This document shows positions 27,661-59,849 of a stretch of DNA of 64,000 bases, one piece after another (position 1 is the stretch's first letter; the number at the start of each line of letters is the position of its first letter). The position numbers were made by a program, and so were the translations under genes. The notes below the pieces were generated by a model. It was not told the origin of the DNA. It was given only the letters and a program-made list of their open reading frames with translations, and did no database searches. The stretch covers positions 160,001-224,000 of the IMG/VR virus record IMGVR_UViG_3300021387_001774; one strand, 5' to 3'. The stretch is from a virus. Its lineage: Duplodnaviria > Caudoviricetes.

Positions 27661-28851
27661 TTAAGCGGTCTTCTTTTCTGAAGATACTTTAACAACGGAA
27701 TCCGTCTTAATAGCAGACTTCTTGTTAACACTGTCTACCAAAGCATTACCGTCATACACAGTAACATCTTCCTTCTTTTCAATAATGGCTTCTTCAGGAA
27801 TTTCAAATTCACGATATTCAAAAGTCTTTGTTACGCAACCATTTCCAATAACTGAACCAATTGTAGCACCAAGAGCTGTATCACATATTGTAGAATTAAT
27901 CATGTGGTTAGTAGCAACCTTAGCGATTGTACCATATCCTGCAATAGGATCAACTTCAGCAAAGTCATAACTCTTAGCGAGTTCTTCCTTAAGCTTCTTC
28001 AACTGTTTCTTTTCAGAAATCTTTCTTACTGCCTTAAGACCAAGTTCACCAATACCAGAAAGTACACCAAATGATGTAGCTGCTGCAAGAACCTTATTGT
28101 TACTAATCTTCTCTTCAGCTACCTTGTTGATCAAGAGCTTAACAGCTGCAGGAGCAACAACAGTTGCTACAGTATGCTGTGCAGCAAACTTGAATTTCTC
28201 CTTACGGATCGTTGATCTAATAAGATCAGCTTCGGCAGATGTAATTACATTTGGATCAAACATACTGTTAATCTTCTCATCATTAGTTGAGAAGAACATC
28301 TGACCAAACATATTTGTACCAGCTGCGATAGCTGAACAAGCAATAATACCATTCTTGTTTCCGTACTTCAAAGAAGTTTCCATAGCATCGTTTACAACGA
28401 TCTTAGAAGTATTCTTCAAAGCAAACTTAACTGCTTCAGAAACCTTTGATTTCTTATCGCCAGAAAGATCAATACCTGTACAAGCTTTAACAATCTTGTT
28501 CTTAAATGGCTCATTTGTAAGCATTGTATCAAGTTCTTTACAAGCTGAATCATAAGCTGCTGTTCTAATAGCTGATCTATCAGTTCCAGTTGTACCTTCG
28601 AGACCTACAGGATCTTTTGCTGGTTCAACCGGTTTTGGATTGGTGTGTACAATCTTTCCAACGATTTCTTTGATTCTCATATCGTTATCTTCCTCCTCTG
28701 TGTAGTCCTTTGTTTTTCTAATTGCATTAGAAGCCATAGCTGCGGACAATCTAGCTATGGCCTCACCTTCAAGATTATTTGTGTACTCTTCACCCAATGC
28801 TGCTCTAATGCGTCGTGAAGGATCAAATGCACTTGTGTCGTTGATGGCCAT
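27661..28851 (-). CDS. hypothetical Ala-rich, possibly membrane-associated protein
   Basis: 396 aa, AAAGGAG SD, several Gly/Ala-rich hydrophobic helices. Confidence 0.8.
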   Translation of the reverse strand: MAINDTSAFDPSRRIRAALGEEYTNNLEGEAIARLSAAMASNAIRKTKDYTEEEDNDMRIKEIVGKIVHTNPKPVEPAKDPVGLEGTTGTDRSAIRTAAYDSACKELDTMLTNEPFKNKIVKACTGIDLSGDKKSKVSEAVKFALKNTSKIVVNDAMETSLKYGNKNGIIACSAIAAGTNMFGQMFFSTNDEKINSMFDPNVITSAEADLIRSTIRKEKFKFAAQHTVATVVAPAAVKLLINKVAEEKISNNKVLAAATSFGVLSGIGELGLKAVRKISEKKQLKKLKEELAKSYDFAEVDPIAGYGTIAKVATNHMINSTICDTALGATIGSVIGNGCVTKTFEYREFEIPEEAIIEKKEDVTVYDGNALVDSVNKKSAIKTDSVVKVSSEKKTA

Positions 28852-41719: not shown

Positions 41720-43108
41720 ATGAAAATGATTAAAACAGTAGATAATAAGATAACCAAATATAAAGATGTTGATAAGATGCAACAAATTTATTTAGAAAAT
41801 GACGAAGTTAAATTTGTATCTACGGAATATGAAAATAAAGAAGTTCCATTAGATGATGTATGTAAATTGTATAATATTCTTATGGGAACAATAACCAAAT
41901 ATGATTCTCAATATAAACATGATGATACAAAAACGAAAGAATATATTATCAATGAGTTAAAGAATGAACGTCAAATGTTTATGCTTTATATGGATAATGA
42001 TTCTGTTAAAGGTTTTGTTACATTTGGTAAAAATGGTAATGATATTAATGTAAATAAATTAGTTGTTGATGATAACTATAGAAAACAAGGAATCGGTACA
42101 TATATTCTCAAGTATGTAGAATATGTTGCAGATAATATGTATGAAAGTTCTAAGATTACTTTAAACGTAGCTGATAAAAATACTACTGCTATAGATTTCT
42201 ATAGAGATTATGGTTTTATGTCAGAAGATGAATCAAAAGAATCGTTTTGGTTTATTTCTGTAGAAGATTATAAGAATACAGGAAGCAAGAAATACATTTA
42301 TAATAATAGAAAAGATGTAGGCGGAAGACGTAGATTCAAATGTTTAGATTGTGGACAACGTTTTCATGAATTTAATGACCTTGTAAAACATGCTTCCAAA
42401 TATCATAAAGATTTAGTTGGTGATGAAGATATTTATAAATATCTTTATGAAAAAAGAAATCCTGGTCCATATATCTGTCCTATATGTAATAAAAATCCTA
42501 GACCTTGGGATCCTGTAAAACGTAAATATAAACGTATTTGTGATTCTCCAGAATGTGCTAAGAAAAGTAGAGAAGCTTTTAAAAAGAATATGAAAAAGGT
42601 TTATGGTACAGATAATCTTCTTAAAGATCCAGAACATCAAGCTAAAATGATGGCTAATAGACATATTTCTGGTAAGTTTAAATTCCCAGATGGTGTAGAA
42701 ATTACTTATGTAGGGAATTATGAATTGGATTTTTTGAGATATCTTGTAGATAAATATAAATTTGATTCTACTGATATCATTGAATGTCCTAGAGAATTAT
42801 ATATTCAGTATTATGATATTTACACTGAAAAGGAACGTTGGTATATTCCAGATTTCTTCTTACCAAAATTTGATCTTGTTGTAGAAATAAAAGATGGAAG
42901 CAAATATCCAAAGGATTCTAAACAGAAATCATTACTTAAAGATAAAGCAGTGATTAAAGAAGATAAGTTTAATTATATTAAAATCGTTGATAAGGACTAT
43001 ACAGATTTTGATAACTTTATTAATATGGTTATCGAGAATCATTATAGTGAAGAGAAGAGGGATACTAAACATATCTTTATGATTCCGGTACAAAAGTTTG
43101 CTTTATAA
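41720..43108 (+). CDS. GNAT acetyltransferase / C2H2 zinc finger / PD-(D/E)XK nuclease fusion
   Basis: LVVDDNYRKQGIGT and N..AIDFY...GF (GNAT); FKCLDCGQRF...LVKHASKYH (C2H2); CPIC...C...C; YIPDFFLPKFDLVVEIKD (nuclease). Confidence 0.8.
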   Translation: MKMIKTVDNKITKYKDVDKMQQIYLENDEVKFVSTEYENKEVPLDDVCKLYNILMGTITKYDSQYKHDDTKTKEYIINELKNERQMFMLYMDNDSVKGFVTFGKNGNDINVNKLVVDDNYRKQGIGTYILKYVEYVADNMYESSKITLNVADKNTTAIDFYRDYGFMSEDESKESFWFISVEDYKNTGSKKYIYNNRKDVGGRRRFKCLDCGQRFHEFNDLVKHASKYHKDLVGDEDIYKYLYEKRNPGPYICPICNKNPRPWDPVKRKYKRICDSPECAKKSREAFKKNMKKVYGTDNLLKDPEHQAKMMANRHISGKFKFPDGVEITYVGNYELDFLRYLVDKYKFDSTDIIECPRELYIQYYDIYTEKERWYIPDFFLPKFDLVVEIKDGSKYPKDSKQKSLLKDKAVIKEDKFNYIKIVDKDYTDFDNFINMVIENHYSEEKRDTKHIFMIPVQKFAL

Positions 43109-43268
43109 TTTTTTATATATAAAGAACAAATAGATGTATTTCTATTACAGTAGATAGTGTAAAAACTGAAAATTTTTTAGTTATATATTATATGACTGAA
43201 TGTAGAGATACATCCAAAAACAAAGTAGCCAAAGCGCGCGCTACTAAATATTTCTTCAGGAGGGCCAT

Positions 43269-43433
43269 ATGGCTGACAATGAAAAGAAGGGATTTGTAAA
43301 GTCTGTAACAGACTCAGTTAAGGACGTGGTACCAAAGACCACAGGTGGAAAGGTTGCTGGCGGTGTATTCGCCGGATTGCTTTCTGTTGGATCCTTCTTT
43401 ATTGGAAGGATTACAAAGAAATCAAAGAAGTAA
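43269..43433 (+). CDS. 54-aa single-TM small protein (absent from the ORF track)
   Basis: AGGAGG SD; MADNEKKGFVKSVTDSVKDVVPKTTGGKVAGGVFAGLLSVGSFFIGRITKKSKK; early-type promoter at ~43181. Confidence 0.8.
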   Translation: MADNEKKGFVKSVTDSVKDVVPKTTGGKVAGGVFAGLLSVGSFFIGRITKKSKK

Positions 43434-43443
43434 TCTTTCTGGT

Positions 43444-43504
43444 AGCACTATAGTTTAAATGGTAAAACAGTTTATCTATGGGAGTTCAAATCTCCCTAGT
43501 GCTG
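43444..43504 (+). ncRNA. tRNA mimic lacking the anticodon arm
   Basis: Acceptor AGCACTA/TAGTGCT, D-arm GTTT-AAATGGTA-AAAC, T-arm GGGAG-TTCAAAT-CTCCC; only 11 nt between the D and T arms. Confidence 0.8.
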
Positions 43505-43577
43505 TATGAAAATCTTATTAACTAAAGATTTTCATAATTGACTCCTTGGGGACCCGGTAGTAACCGGGTCCCATTTT
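43505..43577 (+). ncRNA. putative antisense sRNA (hairpin, anti-SD linker, terminator)
   Basis: 12-bp hairpin, linker ATTGACTCCTT, GGGACCCGGT/ACCGGGTCCC terminator; 43526-43547 is complementary to 58440-58462. Confidence 0.65.
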
Positions 43578-43590
43578 ATATTTTTTTTCT

Positions 43591-47943: not shown

Positions 47944-48006
47944 GTAGCAGAGGAAATACTTGTATCCAAAAATCCCATCCCACTCATACTGTATGACCTC
48001 TGCTAT
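47944..48006 (+). ncRNA. putative sRNA with C-rich loop in the tRNA-Asn leader
   Basis: GTAGCAGAGG/CCTCTGCTAT stem enclosing two mini-hairpins and CCAAAAATCCCATCCCAC; begins at the late-type promoter at 47933. Confidence 0.5.
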
Positions 48007-48090: not shown

Positions 48091-48170
48091 TTCTGCTAAC
48101 AAATAACATTCATAGGCTGGTGTGTTTTTGTTCTCCTTTTTATGGTAGCTTGTTAAGCTACCATATTTTT
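48091..48170 (+). ncRNA. tRNA trailer: hairpin, CTCCTT anti-SD linker, terminator
   Basis: AACAAA.../...TTTGTT imperfect hairpin, CTCCTTTT, TATGGTAGCTT/AAGCTACCATA terminator. Confidence 0.5.
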
Positions 48171-52768: not shown

Positions 52769-52789
52769 ATATTGTTGTGTTTCTGGAAA

Positions 52790-52901
52790 AAAATAAAAAG
52801 GAGGAGATCGCTAACTGGGTGGGAAGAAATGCGACCTCCTCCTAACATAAGGAAGAAAAATGGGGAAAGCTATTAGAGAATGGACACTCTATAGCTTCCA
52901 T
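52790..52901 (-). ncRNA. stand-alone sRNA with anti-SD/anti-AUG linker and loop
   Basis: Early-type promoter at 52906-52920 (minus), hairpin 1, linker CCAUUUUUCUUCCUUAU, 13-bp terminator hairpin with loop AUUUCUUCCCACCC and U-tract. Confidence 0.65.
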
Positions 52902-55836: not shown

Positions 55837-56228
55837 TTACTGTTCAAACTATACCATCTAATTATATATTATATTAATGAGGTAAAGATTAGGGAGGGTA
55901 CACCACACCCTCCCTAAAATTGTGTTATCTCAAAGGAGGTAATCAGTATGCTTTTTAAATACTATTATTCGTTCCTAGACGAAGATGGTAACCTGAAAGC
56001 TGATCATACTTATCTTAGTAGAGATGAGTTCATCAGAATTACAGGTGGAATAGATCCTGTTGAAGCTGGTGCCGAAGTTTACCGAAGGCATTAAATTTCA
56101 ACAGGATCAAGTTCTTTGAGATAATATACTATAATGTATAATATTAAATAGAAAAATATTCTTTATAATGAAGCTTCGTTGAAAACATTATAAAGAATGA
56201 CAGGTCAACTAACAGTACCTGTTTTTTA
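55837..56228 (+). repeat. dispersed cassette copy 2 (homolog of 13137-13576)
   Basis: Same order of conserved blocks as copy 1, with compensatory changes in stems. Confidence 0.9.
55948..56094 (+). CDS. 48-aa small protein, paralog of 13252-13419 (absent from the ORF track)
   Basis: AAAGGAGGT SD; MLFKYYYSFLDEDGNLKADHTYLSRDEFIRITGGIDPVEAGAEVYRRH. Confidence 0.8.
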   Translation: MLFKYYYSFLDEDGNLKADHTYLSRDEFIRITGGIDPVEAGAEVYRRH

Positions 56229-57334: not shown

Positions 57335-57399
57335 CGTCTTATAGCTCAGTGGTAGAGCGGTGGACGCATAATCCGTTGGTCCGAATCCAAGTAAGACTC
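57335..57399 (+). pseudogene. degenerate tRNA (CAT) lacking the variable loop and part of the T-stem
   Basis: GTCTTA/TAAGAC acceptor, canonical D-arm, loop CGCATAA (G33), TTGG-TCCGAAT-CCAA abutting the anticodon stem. Confidence 0.65.
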
Positions 57400-57550: not shown

Positions 57551-57660
57551 GGCAGAAAACATAAGTCTATCGTGAAAAGGGATTAAGTTCCCCTATGATA
57601 GATGGTCGAACTAGGATGGAATATCCTCAGGAAGAGAGTTTTGCACGTATTAGATCTTCC
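57551..57660 (+). ncRNA. putative pseudoknotted RNA directly after tRNA-Leu
   Basis: GCAGAA/TTTTGC, TCTATCGTG/TATGATAGA, AGGAT/ATCCT, crossing GGAAGA/TCTTCC. Confidence 0.5.
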
Positions 57661-57672
57661 AACTTTGTTTAA

Positions 57673-57820
57673 GGTATAGCAAAACGGCTAGTCATTGATA
57701 CGTATCATTAGGTGATAGGACTTCTTAAGCGTAGTTCAAACCATTATAGTTGAAACTTATTGCTGGGAAGACTTAATGATATTAGTACTTTGATTGTGAG
57801 TTCGATCCTCACCTATACCA
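57673..57820 (+). ncRNA. tRNA-like RNA with a long rod replacing the anticodon arm
   Basis: GGTATAG/CTATACC-A acceptor, GTGAG-TTCGATC-CTCAC T-arm, stemless GG-containing D region, four stacked helices. Confidence 0.7.
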
Positions 57821-57823
57821 ATC

Positions 57824-58077
57824 GGTGGTTTATAACAAAGTGGCTAAAAAGTATGCCCACCATCAAGCTTCTTTCTTCATTGTATACTGGGGAGAAAAGA
57901 AGTATAAATATCCTACCACGCATGCGTGATCGCTTATACTGCTGTAGCCATGAGAAAGTCGCTAGTATAAGACGGAAGAGTAGGTACTTTTACAAATGAA
58001 CAGTCCCTTTGCCTGTTTCGAGAACGACGGCATTTGTAGAAGTAATGGTTTATAGCTGGTTATGAAATAGGCACTTT
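57824..58077 (+). ncRNA. ~255-nt multi-pseudoknot structured RNA
   Basis: At least nine helices, including long-range pairings (see findings); bounded by the tRNA-like RNA and tRNA-Lys. Confidence 0.7.
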
Positions 58078-58150
58078 GGACTTTTAGCTCAGTTGGTAGA
58101 GCAACGCCCTTTTAAGGCGTGGGTCGCGGGTTCAAATCCCGCAAAGTTCA
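58078..58150 (+). tRNA. tRNA-Lys(TTT)
   Basis: GGACTTT/AAAGTTC, loop CTTTTAA, TTCAAAT T-loop. Confidence 0.95.
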
Positions 58151-58354: not shown

Positions 58355-58451
58355 ATACTGTTAGAGAGAGAGTGTCAATTATATATTATATTAATAGTAA
58401 GGAATGGAAATTGGTTCCATATCCGAAAGAGATTTCATTAAGGAGTCAATT

Positions 58452-59039
58452 ATGGAAAATCTCAGAGAAATTAATGATGACATTATGCTTTATGTCATTA
58501 AAAGATCAAGCAGTTCACATGAAGAATATACGGGGATTCCACTCCCCGTATATTTTGTAGATCTACGTGATCTTTACAAAAATGCTATTGAGGTCGGCAT
58601 TTTTGATTATATAGCTGACCTCACGGCTGGATCGTCAGCATTCTGTTTCAGATACGGAATAGTTTGCGATGAACGGATCAAGAATAATTCTGAATTGGCC
58701 TTTATTCTTCATCATGAGGCAGGTCATATCTTAAATGGAGACATTTATGAACCTTCTGATGATGATGAAAAGGAGTATGCTGCAGATCGTCATGCTTATG
58801 ATGTGACACACCATATTCCTGATTTTAGTAAGATGATCATTGATTATGCGATTCATTGTTTCGATGAATTCACTGATCAAGAGATCAATGAAATAACTTC
58901 AGGGAATTTCAGCGGCCTTGAAGATTATAGAATGACTGCTGAAAAGATGCTTTCTGAGAGCGAATGTGGAGAAGCTTTGACTCTTAGAAAATTAAAACTG
59001 CAAGAGTACATAAACTCTAAAAACGAGTTTAATTATTAG
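58452..59039 (+). CDS. HExxH metallopeptidase-like protein (ImmA/IrrE or M48-like)
   Basis: FILHHEAGHI...EYAADRHA; start moved from 58404 to 58452 (AAGGAG-N6-ATG); terminator at ~59054-59090. Confidence 0.75.
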   Translation: MENLREINDDIMLYVIKRSSSSHEEYTGIPLPVYFVDLRDLYKNAIEVGIFDYIADLTAGSSAFCFRYGIVCDERIKNNSELAFILHHEAGHILNGDIYEPSDDDEKEYAADRHAYDVTHHIPDFSKMIIDYAIHCFDEFTDQEINEITSGNFSGLEDYRMTAEKMLSESECGEALTLRKLKLQEYINSKNEFNY

Positions 59040-59243
59040 TAGTCCTGAATTAATTAAATCGTGGGGGGTGAAATGCTCCCACGATTTAATTTTTTTAATA
59101 TTTTTTTAATTATATATTATATTAATGTAAAAGGATCGTTGATCCTTAAATATTTTAACCAAAAAGTACCTGAGTAGGAGAAATGAAAGGGTCGCCTAGA
59201 GAAAGGTCTACTATGTTATAGGGATAATCACAAAGGAGCAATT

Positions 59244-59849
59244 ATGAAATATACTGCTAAGACAAACGGAAAGATTACTTATGATGTTAAGGCAACAGAC
59301 AATGCTACAGGCGTCATTACTAATCTTTGGAAAAAGATCTCAGGCATTATTTCAAATTCAAAAGAAGACACCAGTACCCAAAAGGTTGAAAAACCTGAAG
59401 GGGGGTTGATCGCTGGTGGTGTTTTCGAATGGAATGTCGAAGCAAATCTCGATATTACAGTCGAAGAAATGGCTGAGTTATTTAAGATCAGCAAGGAGAA
59501 TGATCTCCATGCCTGGGATCTTCTCAAAACCGCCGGAAAAGATCTCGTAAAGGGATCAAGAGTCCTTCTCAACGAATTCAAGGCACAGGGTCCAGAATGG
59601 ATGGACGCTGTGCACTCCATGGACCTCATATCTGAGGATCAGGAAAAGGAGCGTGAGCTCCATAAGTTCAGAAATGAACGTGAGCTCGATGCCGAGATTA
59701 AGAAGGCTGGCTGGACTCGTAAAGGTTCATTCTGGTATGAAAATGAGACAGAGGGTCGTAAAACCTCAGTCCATTTCAACGGCTTCAAGAAGGACAAAAA
59801 GGATGAACCTCACAAGGGTTCATTCGACAACCTCAACGACGAGGAGTAG
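59244..59849 (+). CDS. hypothetical early protein (higher GC, long structured leader)
   Basis: 201 aa, AAAGGAG SD, promoter at 59108, terminator at 59897-59928. Confidence 0.8.
   Translation: MKYTAKTNGKITYDVKATDNATGVITNLWKKISGIISNSKEDTSTQKVEKPEGGLIAGGVFEWNVEANLDITVEEMAELFKISKENDLHAWDLLKTAGKDLVKGSRVLLNEFKAQGPEWMDAVHSMDLISEDQEKERELHKFRNERELDAEIKKAGWTRKGSFWYENETEGRKTSVHFNGFKKDKKDEPHKGSFDNLNDEE

Follow-up and report, generated by a model that had tools for sequence, protein, structure and literature searches.

An anticodon-less tRNA-like domain joined to a conserved anti-SD/anti-AUG seed in an AR9-like jumbo phage: a predicted small RNA directed at early gene starts

In a 64,000-nt stretch of phage DNA (the window, positions 160001-224000 of a 263,686-bp record with a G+C content of 29.5%), an RNA element was found in which a tRNA-like domain without an anticodon arm is followed by a hairpin, an open linker carrying an antisense seed, and a terminator. 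The element is a real, selected RNA gene that was previously uncatalogued. Judging from sequence, it is proposed, with slightly better than even confidence, to be a repressor of early-gene translation released by RNase P and RNase Z.

The source phage is an AR9-like jumbo phage of the ruminant gut, and the sequencing runs containing the stretch were mainly cattle and sheep gut metagenomes. About 67 sites in this phage match the AR9 early-promoter consensus, which in AR9 marks the early genes transcribed by the injected polymerase without new protein (PMC5312081). An endonuclease gene near the element is about 35% identical to its homologues in AR9/PBS1, Staphylococcus jumbo phages, LPJP1 and phiR1-37. 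The AR9 and Staphylococcus orthologues align to the endonuclease part only, not to the GNAT domain that is fused to it. A connection between this upstream GNAT domain and a tRNA decoy was considered and dropped, since adjacency was its sole support. The unit is flanked by the GNAT-endonuclease gene and by genes of unknown function; no Ro60 gene was found among them.

From its parts, the element is predicted to close an early-promoter transcript, which would be composed as follows (window coordinates).

41720-43108, upstream of the RNA unit: GNAT acetyltransferase domain fused to a conserved Zn-finger endonuclease
43182..43198, plus strand: early-type phage promoter, TATATATTAT-N6-G, a match to the AR9 early consensus; predicted start 43198
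43269..43433, plus strand: 54-aa ORF with its own SD, a central hydrophobic stretch and a basic tail; first in the transcript
43444..43504, plus strand: anticodon-less tRNA-like domain (Rfam tRNA) with acceptor stem, D-arm and T-arm; no encoded CCA
43505..43536, plus strand: hairpin of 12 bp adjoining the discriminator, in which the anti-AUG end of the seed is masked
43531..43548, plus strand: 18-nt anti-SD/anti-AUG seed, of which 43537-43548 is unpaired (toehold)
43549..43590, plus strand: intrinsic terminator, 10-bp stem (43549-43572) and U-rich tail

The small ORF was used to fetch the orthologous loci of the near clade and of a sister clade, which yielded 12 orthologues of the unit (13 loci were compared for hairpin and seed). 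Relatives of this ORF form six clusters with 61-100% identity; no Pfam match was obtained. The tRNA-like domain lies 3' of it at every locus fetched. The promoter is kept in both clades and is predicted to be active. The terminator closes the unit ahead of the next early promoter and is present in all orthologues with unrelated sequence, which identifies the plus strand as the transcribed one. No RNA run was among those listed as containing the stretch, and two metatranscriptome runs contained no contig on it, which is evidence neither way. A 61-aa variant of the small ORF (P0025) has a tail that matches one translation of the tRNA-like domain, which suggests that sequence was deleted or misassembled. 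Paralogous early ORFs of 43-48 aa with a strong SD occur at window 55948-56094 and at genome position 131810.

The first-pass annotation had described 43444-43504 as a tRNA mimic without an anticodon, and the structure was indeed found, with a 7-bp acceptor stem, a 4-bp D-stem and a 5-bp T-stem. The D-arm carries A14, G18 and G19, the T-loop is a canonical 7-nt loop, and the gap between D- and T-stem is exactly 11 nt. With the anticodon arm deleted, the domain scored 46.7 bits against the Rfam tRNA family (RF00005, cut-off 29); neither ARAGORN nor a whole-window Rfam scan called it. The acceptor stem, the GG of the D-loop and the T-loop consensus of RF00005 are present, and the 5-bp anticodon stem, 7-nt loop and stable anticodon of that family are missing. 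The cloverleaf folds at -15.5 kcal/mol, compared with -16.9 kcal/mol for the minimum free energy structure, so that the D-arm is slightly disfavoured on free energy alone. The six true tRNAs of the phage likewise have no encoded CCA.

Acceptor and T-stems were 100% paired in 10 orthologues, and three of the five T-stem pairs were altered on both sides, a covariation whose shuffle counts are not probabilities because the independent lineages are few. The acceptor stem, U8, A9, A14, G18, G19, U48 and the T-loop were kept in all loci, with a weaker D-stem in some orthologues. The anticodon region is 11-13 nt long in one clade and consists in the other of stem-loops with 5-9-nt loops and no common triplet; the discriminator base is G, A or U. 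These parts vary while stems and elbow are kept: selection acts on shape and not on decoding.

The layout behind the domain, also proposed earlier, is an open anti-SD toehold with the anti-AUG part masked in a hairpin, and it was confirmed and is conserved across loci. The hairpin-linker-terminator region folds with z = -5.4, and the 12-nt linker between hairpin and terminator is open (P unpaired 0.9-1.0). In the genome, the seed at 43531-43548 is the sole copy outside a gene start that spans the whole SD-to-AUG segment.

The comparison between clades showed how strongly this segment is held. The flanking proteins are 64-66% and 37-41% identical and fourfold sites 38-55% identical, and 17 of the 18 seed positions are the same across clades (13 loci). 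The only variable position is U or G: there is no seed variation within the near clade, and the sister clade has G. The hairpin re-forms in 13/13 loci with 5-12 bp of differing sequence and begins 0-5 nt past the discriminator in each; the masking hairpin and the open toehold are thus rebuilt from new sequence in the orthologues.

These data bear on the simplest alternative, namely a functionless decayed tRNA gene next to a chance or relic inverted gene start. Other damaged-looking tRNAs in the phage and an SD-ATG on the opposite strand speak for it. However, the minus-strand frames yield 3-44 unrelated residues and no ORF is conserved, which removes the relic-gene reading, and the conservation of seed and stems stands out from silent sites that are near saturation. 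Decay is therefore largely refuted, and is the most improbable of the explanations considered.

Beyond the two clades, blastn against cultured phages gave no homologue of the unit. Apart from ordinary tRNAs, a covariance model of the unit recovered just weak matches in AR9, Machias and LPJP1, and no such unit is annotated behind the endonuclease orthologues of these phages. Scans of IMG/VR added no orthologue, and the same anti-SD word was not found behind any other anticodon-less domain.

Pairing of the seed was evaluated by RNAduplex and cofold against 211 start regions, called with a simple ORF/SD script. The candidates in the window are listed below.

58378..58462, plus strand: region from the early promoter through the leader to the start of the HExxH gene, containing the best predicted target (58439-58456)
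58452..59039, plus strand: 195-aa HExxH metallopeptidase-like gene, predicted target; weak Peptidase_M48 and phrog_87 matches
59232..59249, plus strand: weaker candidate, the start region of a 201-aa early gene; in close strains it pairs at -20 to -21 kcal/mol

The complementarity of 43526-43547 to 58440-58462 (15 bp plus 7 bp past a bulge) that started this work is exact. Of the 22-bp pairing dedicated to the HExxH gene that was deduced from it, the 15-bp core stands; the 7-bp extension changes between strains and was rejected as a conserved pairing. With G.U pairs allowed, 43531-43548 pairs 18/18 with 58439-58456 at -24.6 kcal/mol, a match retained in three related strains, and the start at 58452 was the best of the 211 (mean -10.9, sd 3.3 kcal/mol). 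The HExxH family consists of one 50% cluster. The leader of the HExxH gene (58425-58462) can fold on itself, with the AUG paired and the SD in a loop.

The HExxH gene could not be upheld as the dedicated target: pairing is nearly as good for a second gene that has this leader, and no orthologue of the peptidase was found in the sister clade, which keeps the RNA. A second exact 15-mer target lies at genome position 108254, outside the window, and the start of the 109-aa gene at genome 108242 forms 16 bp with the seed at -23.1 kcal/mol (rank 2 of 211). The leaders of 58452 and 108242 are homologous (nhmmer E 2e-4), the genes themselves are unrelated, and both starts are kept in related strains. 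On account of the common leader the two best targets count as one event and, the genes being unrelated, the leader class and not the peptidase is the natural target. The sole lead for the 108242 gene (L040:914-1243, minus strand) is a cluster with 12% FlbD members (score 0.87). The pairing with the RBS of 59244, also claimed previously, is real at -20.0 kcal/mol, though weaker; it was rejected as a conserved target, since in a sister-clade sample the start of its orthologue fails to match.

All of the top five seed partners have an early promoter within 200 nt, compared with 57 of the 211 genes (27%). When the spacer was randomised with SD and AUG fixed, 1.85% of trials produced an exact 15-mer and 1.5% a best energy equal to the observed one, giving p about 0.02 for the 211 phage starts. 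Net binding after unfolding, as obtained by cofold, was modest (-9 to -12 kcal/mol). The complementarity is weakened as evidence because every RNA of anti-SD/anti-AUG type will pair with many starts. One trait of a trans-acting RBS-blocking sRNA, a conserved and accessible seed complementary to a distant start, is present.

In the sister clade, the G-variant seed had no exact partner among the 44-77 starts available. A 148-kb contig was walked and the matching leader was not reached, because gene order differs. One weak candidate, a 186-aa gene with 16 bp to the G seed (-20.4 kcal/mol, against -17.0 with the U seed), was discarded, its start being different in L043.

It was also considered that the seed is kept in order to silence mRNAs of the host or of a competing phage, or to damp many host starts in the manner of csRNAs, the match to the phage's own leaders being secondary. 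The seed outlives the HExxH gene across clades, its end reads an invariant ATGAA that both phage targets match only through G.U pairs, and it has a weak sequence likeness to a streptococcal csRNA (26 bits, cut-off 57), all of which this explanation would accommodate. On the other hand, 107 exact 18-mer matches in one-genome-per-species data included no recurring gene in gut taxa, and the 15-mer had no exact match in 60 unselected Lachnospiraceae genomes against two in the 264-kb phage. We regard a host target as unlikely.

A feedback loop, in which the RNA would repress the 54-aa peptide of its own transcript like an antitoxin, would agree with the constant linkage to this small hydrophobic ORF and with 10 of 11 pairs formed with the SD of that ORF in one sister-clade locus. 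That duplex reaches only -14.7 kcal/mol, the ORF start is outside the top 12 in this genome, and its start region, unlike the seed, varies, which makes such a loop very improbable.

From the anatomy, the conservation and the complementarity with its rank, which were established directly, we infer transcription, two cuts, repression and their timing as follows. The virion RNA polymerase would transcribe the early unit comprising the 54-aa ORF, the tRNA-like domain, the hairpin, the seed and the terminator. Host RNase P would cut at 43444 and RNase Z after 43504, and the two cuts would free an RNA of about 72 nt with the hairpin capping its 5' end; such a hairpin may shield a processed 5' end. 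The open anti-SD toehold would then bind one class of early mRNAs of the phage itself (most strongly 58452 and 108242, others less so), the duplex would invade over the AUG, and loading of the 30S subunit would be blocked. As RNA and targets share a promoter class, translation of the targets would come in an early pulse and then be damped as the stable RNA accumulates. The structural requirements for both cleavages are present in the domain: a seven-pair acceptor stem is a main determinant for RNase P (PMC4201824), RNase Z contacts the T-arm and acceptor stem, not the anticodon (PMC7479834), and it cuts CCA-less precursors right after the discriminator (PMC8549757).

Alternatively, the tag might be retained or have a task of its own: once RNase P has cut, it might cap and protect the 5' end, or it might act as decoy for defence proteins that bind tRNAs, and the seed would work in an RNA of about 135 nt. 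The acceptor stem is invariant in sequence, beyond what processing needs; unrelated phages have anticodon-less tRNA-like elements with no comparable seed behind them; and a related RNA, S3, has a seed and no tag. Against this, the hairpin starts 0-5 nt after the discriminator everywhere, the trailer never begins with C, which suits RNase Z (a weak argument in AT-rich DNA), and the full-length folds of some orthologues bury the seed. A retained tag is considered doubtful, and release by the two enzymes is preferred.

S3 is an early RNA of hairpin-linker-terminator type without a tRNA tag, and is probably a sister element of the tRNA-tagged RNA.

52787..52899, minus strand: S3; seed at 52844-52863

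It possesses an early promoter, a hairpin, an open linker and a terminator. Its seed is antisense to the largest early-leader family of this genome, another family than that predicted as target of the tagged RNA, and eight of its ten top-ranked partners in this genome are early genes. The sister-clade S3 has a different seed, whose top ranks among 44 starts are three genes with that clade's own common leader, two of the three from short contigs assigned by sample or homology; this seed reaches -20.6 on one start of the present genome. The pattern suggests that seeds follow early leaders across the clades of this lineage.

Further RNAs of the region were noted. The trailer of tRNA-Asn (window 48092-48170, plus strand) has a hairpin, an anti-SD linker and a terminator, and its best duplex (-21.4) is with the start of a 396-aa gene at 28851, conserved in near strains. 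Two degenerate tRNA-like units occupy the site of tRNA-Asn in the sister clade (L191:14829-15200; L043:14445-14830), and behind the second comes a hairpin whose loop is anti-SD. A loop motif rich in C (CCCACCC-like) was seen at window 47944-48006, in the S3 terminator loop (~52810-52825) and at L043:14530-14600; as it recurs in several RNAs of both clades, it is possibly a protein-binding site or a second seed. A tRNA-like element at window 57335-57399 (plus strand) gave 32.4 bits with Rfam and has a CAT anticodon loop, the 5' strand of its T-stem being missing. At window 57673-57822 (plus strand) an acceptor stem, D-loop and T-arm occur with a long stem of about 100 nt replacing the anticodon arm, and relaxed ARAGORN called a permuted tmRNA over 57636-58150. 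Outside the window, at 243620-243730 (plus strand) of genome G000, a 585-nt gap devoid of genes has an anti-SD/anti-AUG segment before a terminator; the segment matches no phage start over 13 nt. Tentatively, and with somewhat less than even confidence, the lineage may run its own set of sRNAs, each assigned to a duplicated early-leader family and some freed by host enzymes through anticodon-less tRNA tags, as an RNA-only timer that would end early regulons under continued transcription by the virion polymerase.

For the later turning-down of AR9-type early genes, a trans-acting sRNA on common leaders would offer a testable explanation. Were the proposal true, the tag could be a compact device for freeing a defined sRNA from an mRNA, and a possible role would emerge for the anticodon-less tRNA-like elements of unrelated phage contigs that tRNA finders miss. 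One strict anticodon-less pattern gave 39 matches in IMG/VR, 16 with a full 7-bp acceptor stem; we read 13 of the 39 as resembling tmRNA 3' ends, and none repeats this seed arrangement. Of the elements L001-L039, which lie in many unrelated contigs, L014 and L023 are followed at a distance of about 45 nt by an anti-SD/anti-AUG-like segment. The present domain differs from tmRNA, which is split by a tag ORF and has G3.U70 and CCA, in its 11-nt connector, its C3-G70 pair and the absence of CCA.

The element was likened to MALAT1 mascRNA, a non-decoding tRNA-like module with RNase Z acting at the junction. The same holds for the TMERs of murine gammaherpesvirus 68 (PMC4337559), where a viral non-decoding tRNA-like module is co-transcribed with a trans-acting small RNA and RNase Z acts at the junction, as is predicted here. 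TMERs and mascRNA are eukaryotic Pol III/miRNA or lncRNA systems, whereas here a bacteriophage and a predicted RBS-blocking output are concerned, no anticodon arm whatever exists in this clade, and there is no homology. Among bacterial RNAs, E. coli 3'ETS-leuZ (PMC8166272) is also a regulatory RNA behind a tRNA fold freed by tRNA processing (predicted here); however, leuZ is a working tRNA whose spacer sponges sRNAs with Hfq, in contrast to a non-decoding mimic with an mRNA-start antisense, and the two are not homologous. Bacterial and phage Y RNAs such as YrlA mimic the D-arm, T-arm and acceptor stem without a decoding anticodon, and M. smegmatis YrlA is cut by RNase P (PMC4201824). The YrlA acceptor stem is an internal, permuted stem-loop with Ro60 encoded nearby, whereas the present domain has normal tRNA topology with an open 5'/3' acceptor stem, and Rfam gave no Y RNA match on the element.

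The seed part resembles the streptococcal csRNAs (RF02379; PMC3091779), which are short RNAs with an unpaired anti-SD and anti-AUG segment and a terminator as second stem-loop. Such a segment between two stem-loops is present here, with its anti-AUG part inside the first stem. The element falls outside that family at 26.1 bits (cut-off 57), has a phage AR9-type early promoter where the csRNAs are under CiaR control, stands behind a tRNA-like domain, has its anti-AUG part masked, and finds its best partners among phage genes. In the largely open-access literature searched, no paper was encountered that describes an anti-RBS RNA fused to a tRNA mimic in a phage. Each part is of a known kind, and no earlier description appears to exist of their combination in a phage with that phage's early leaders as aim; if true, it would be a bacterial-virus counterpart of the herpesviral tRNA-miRNA units.
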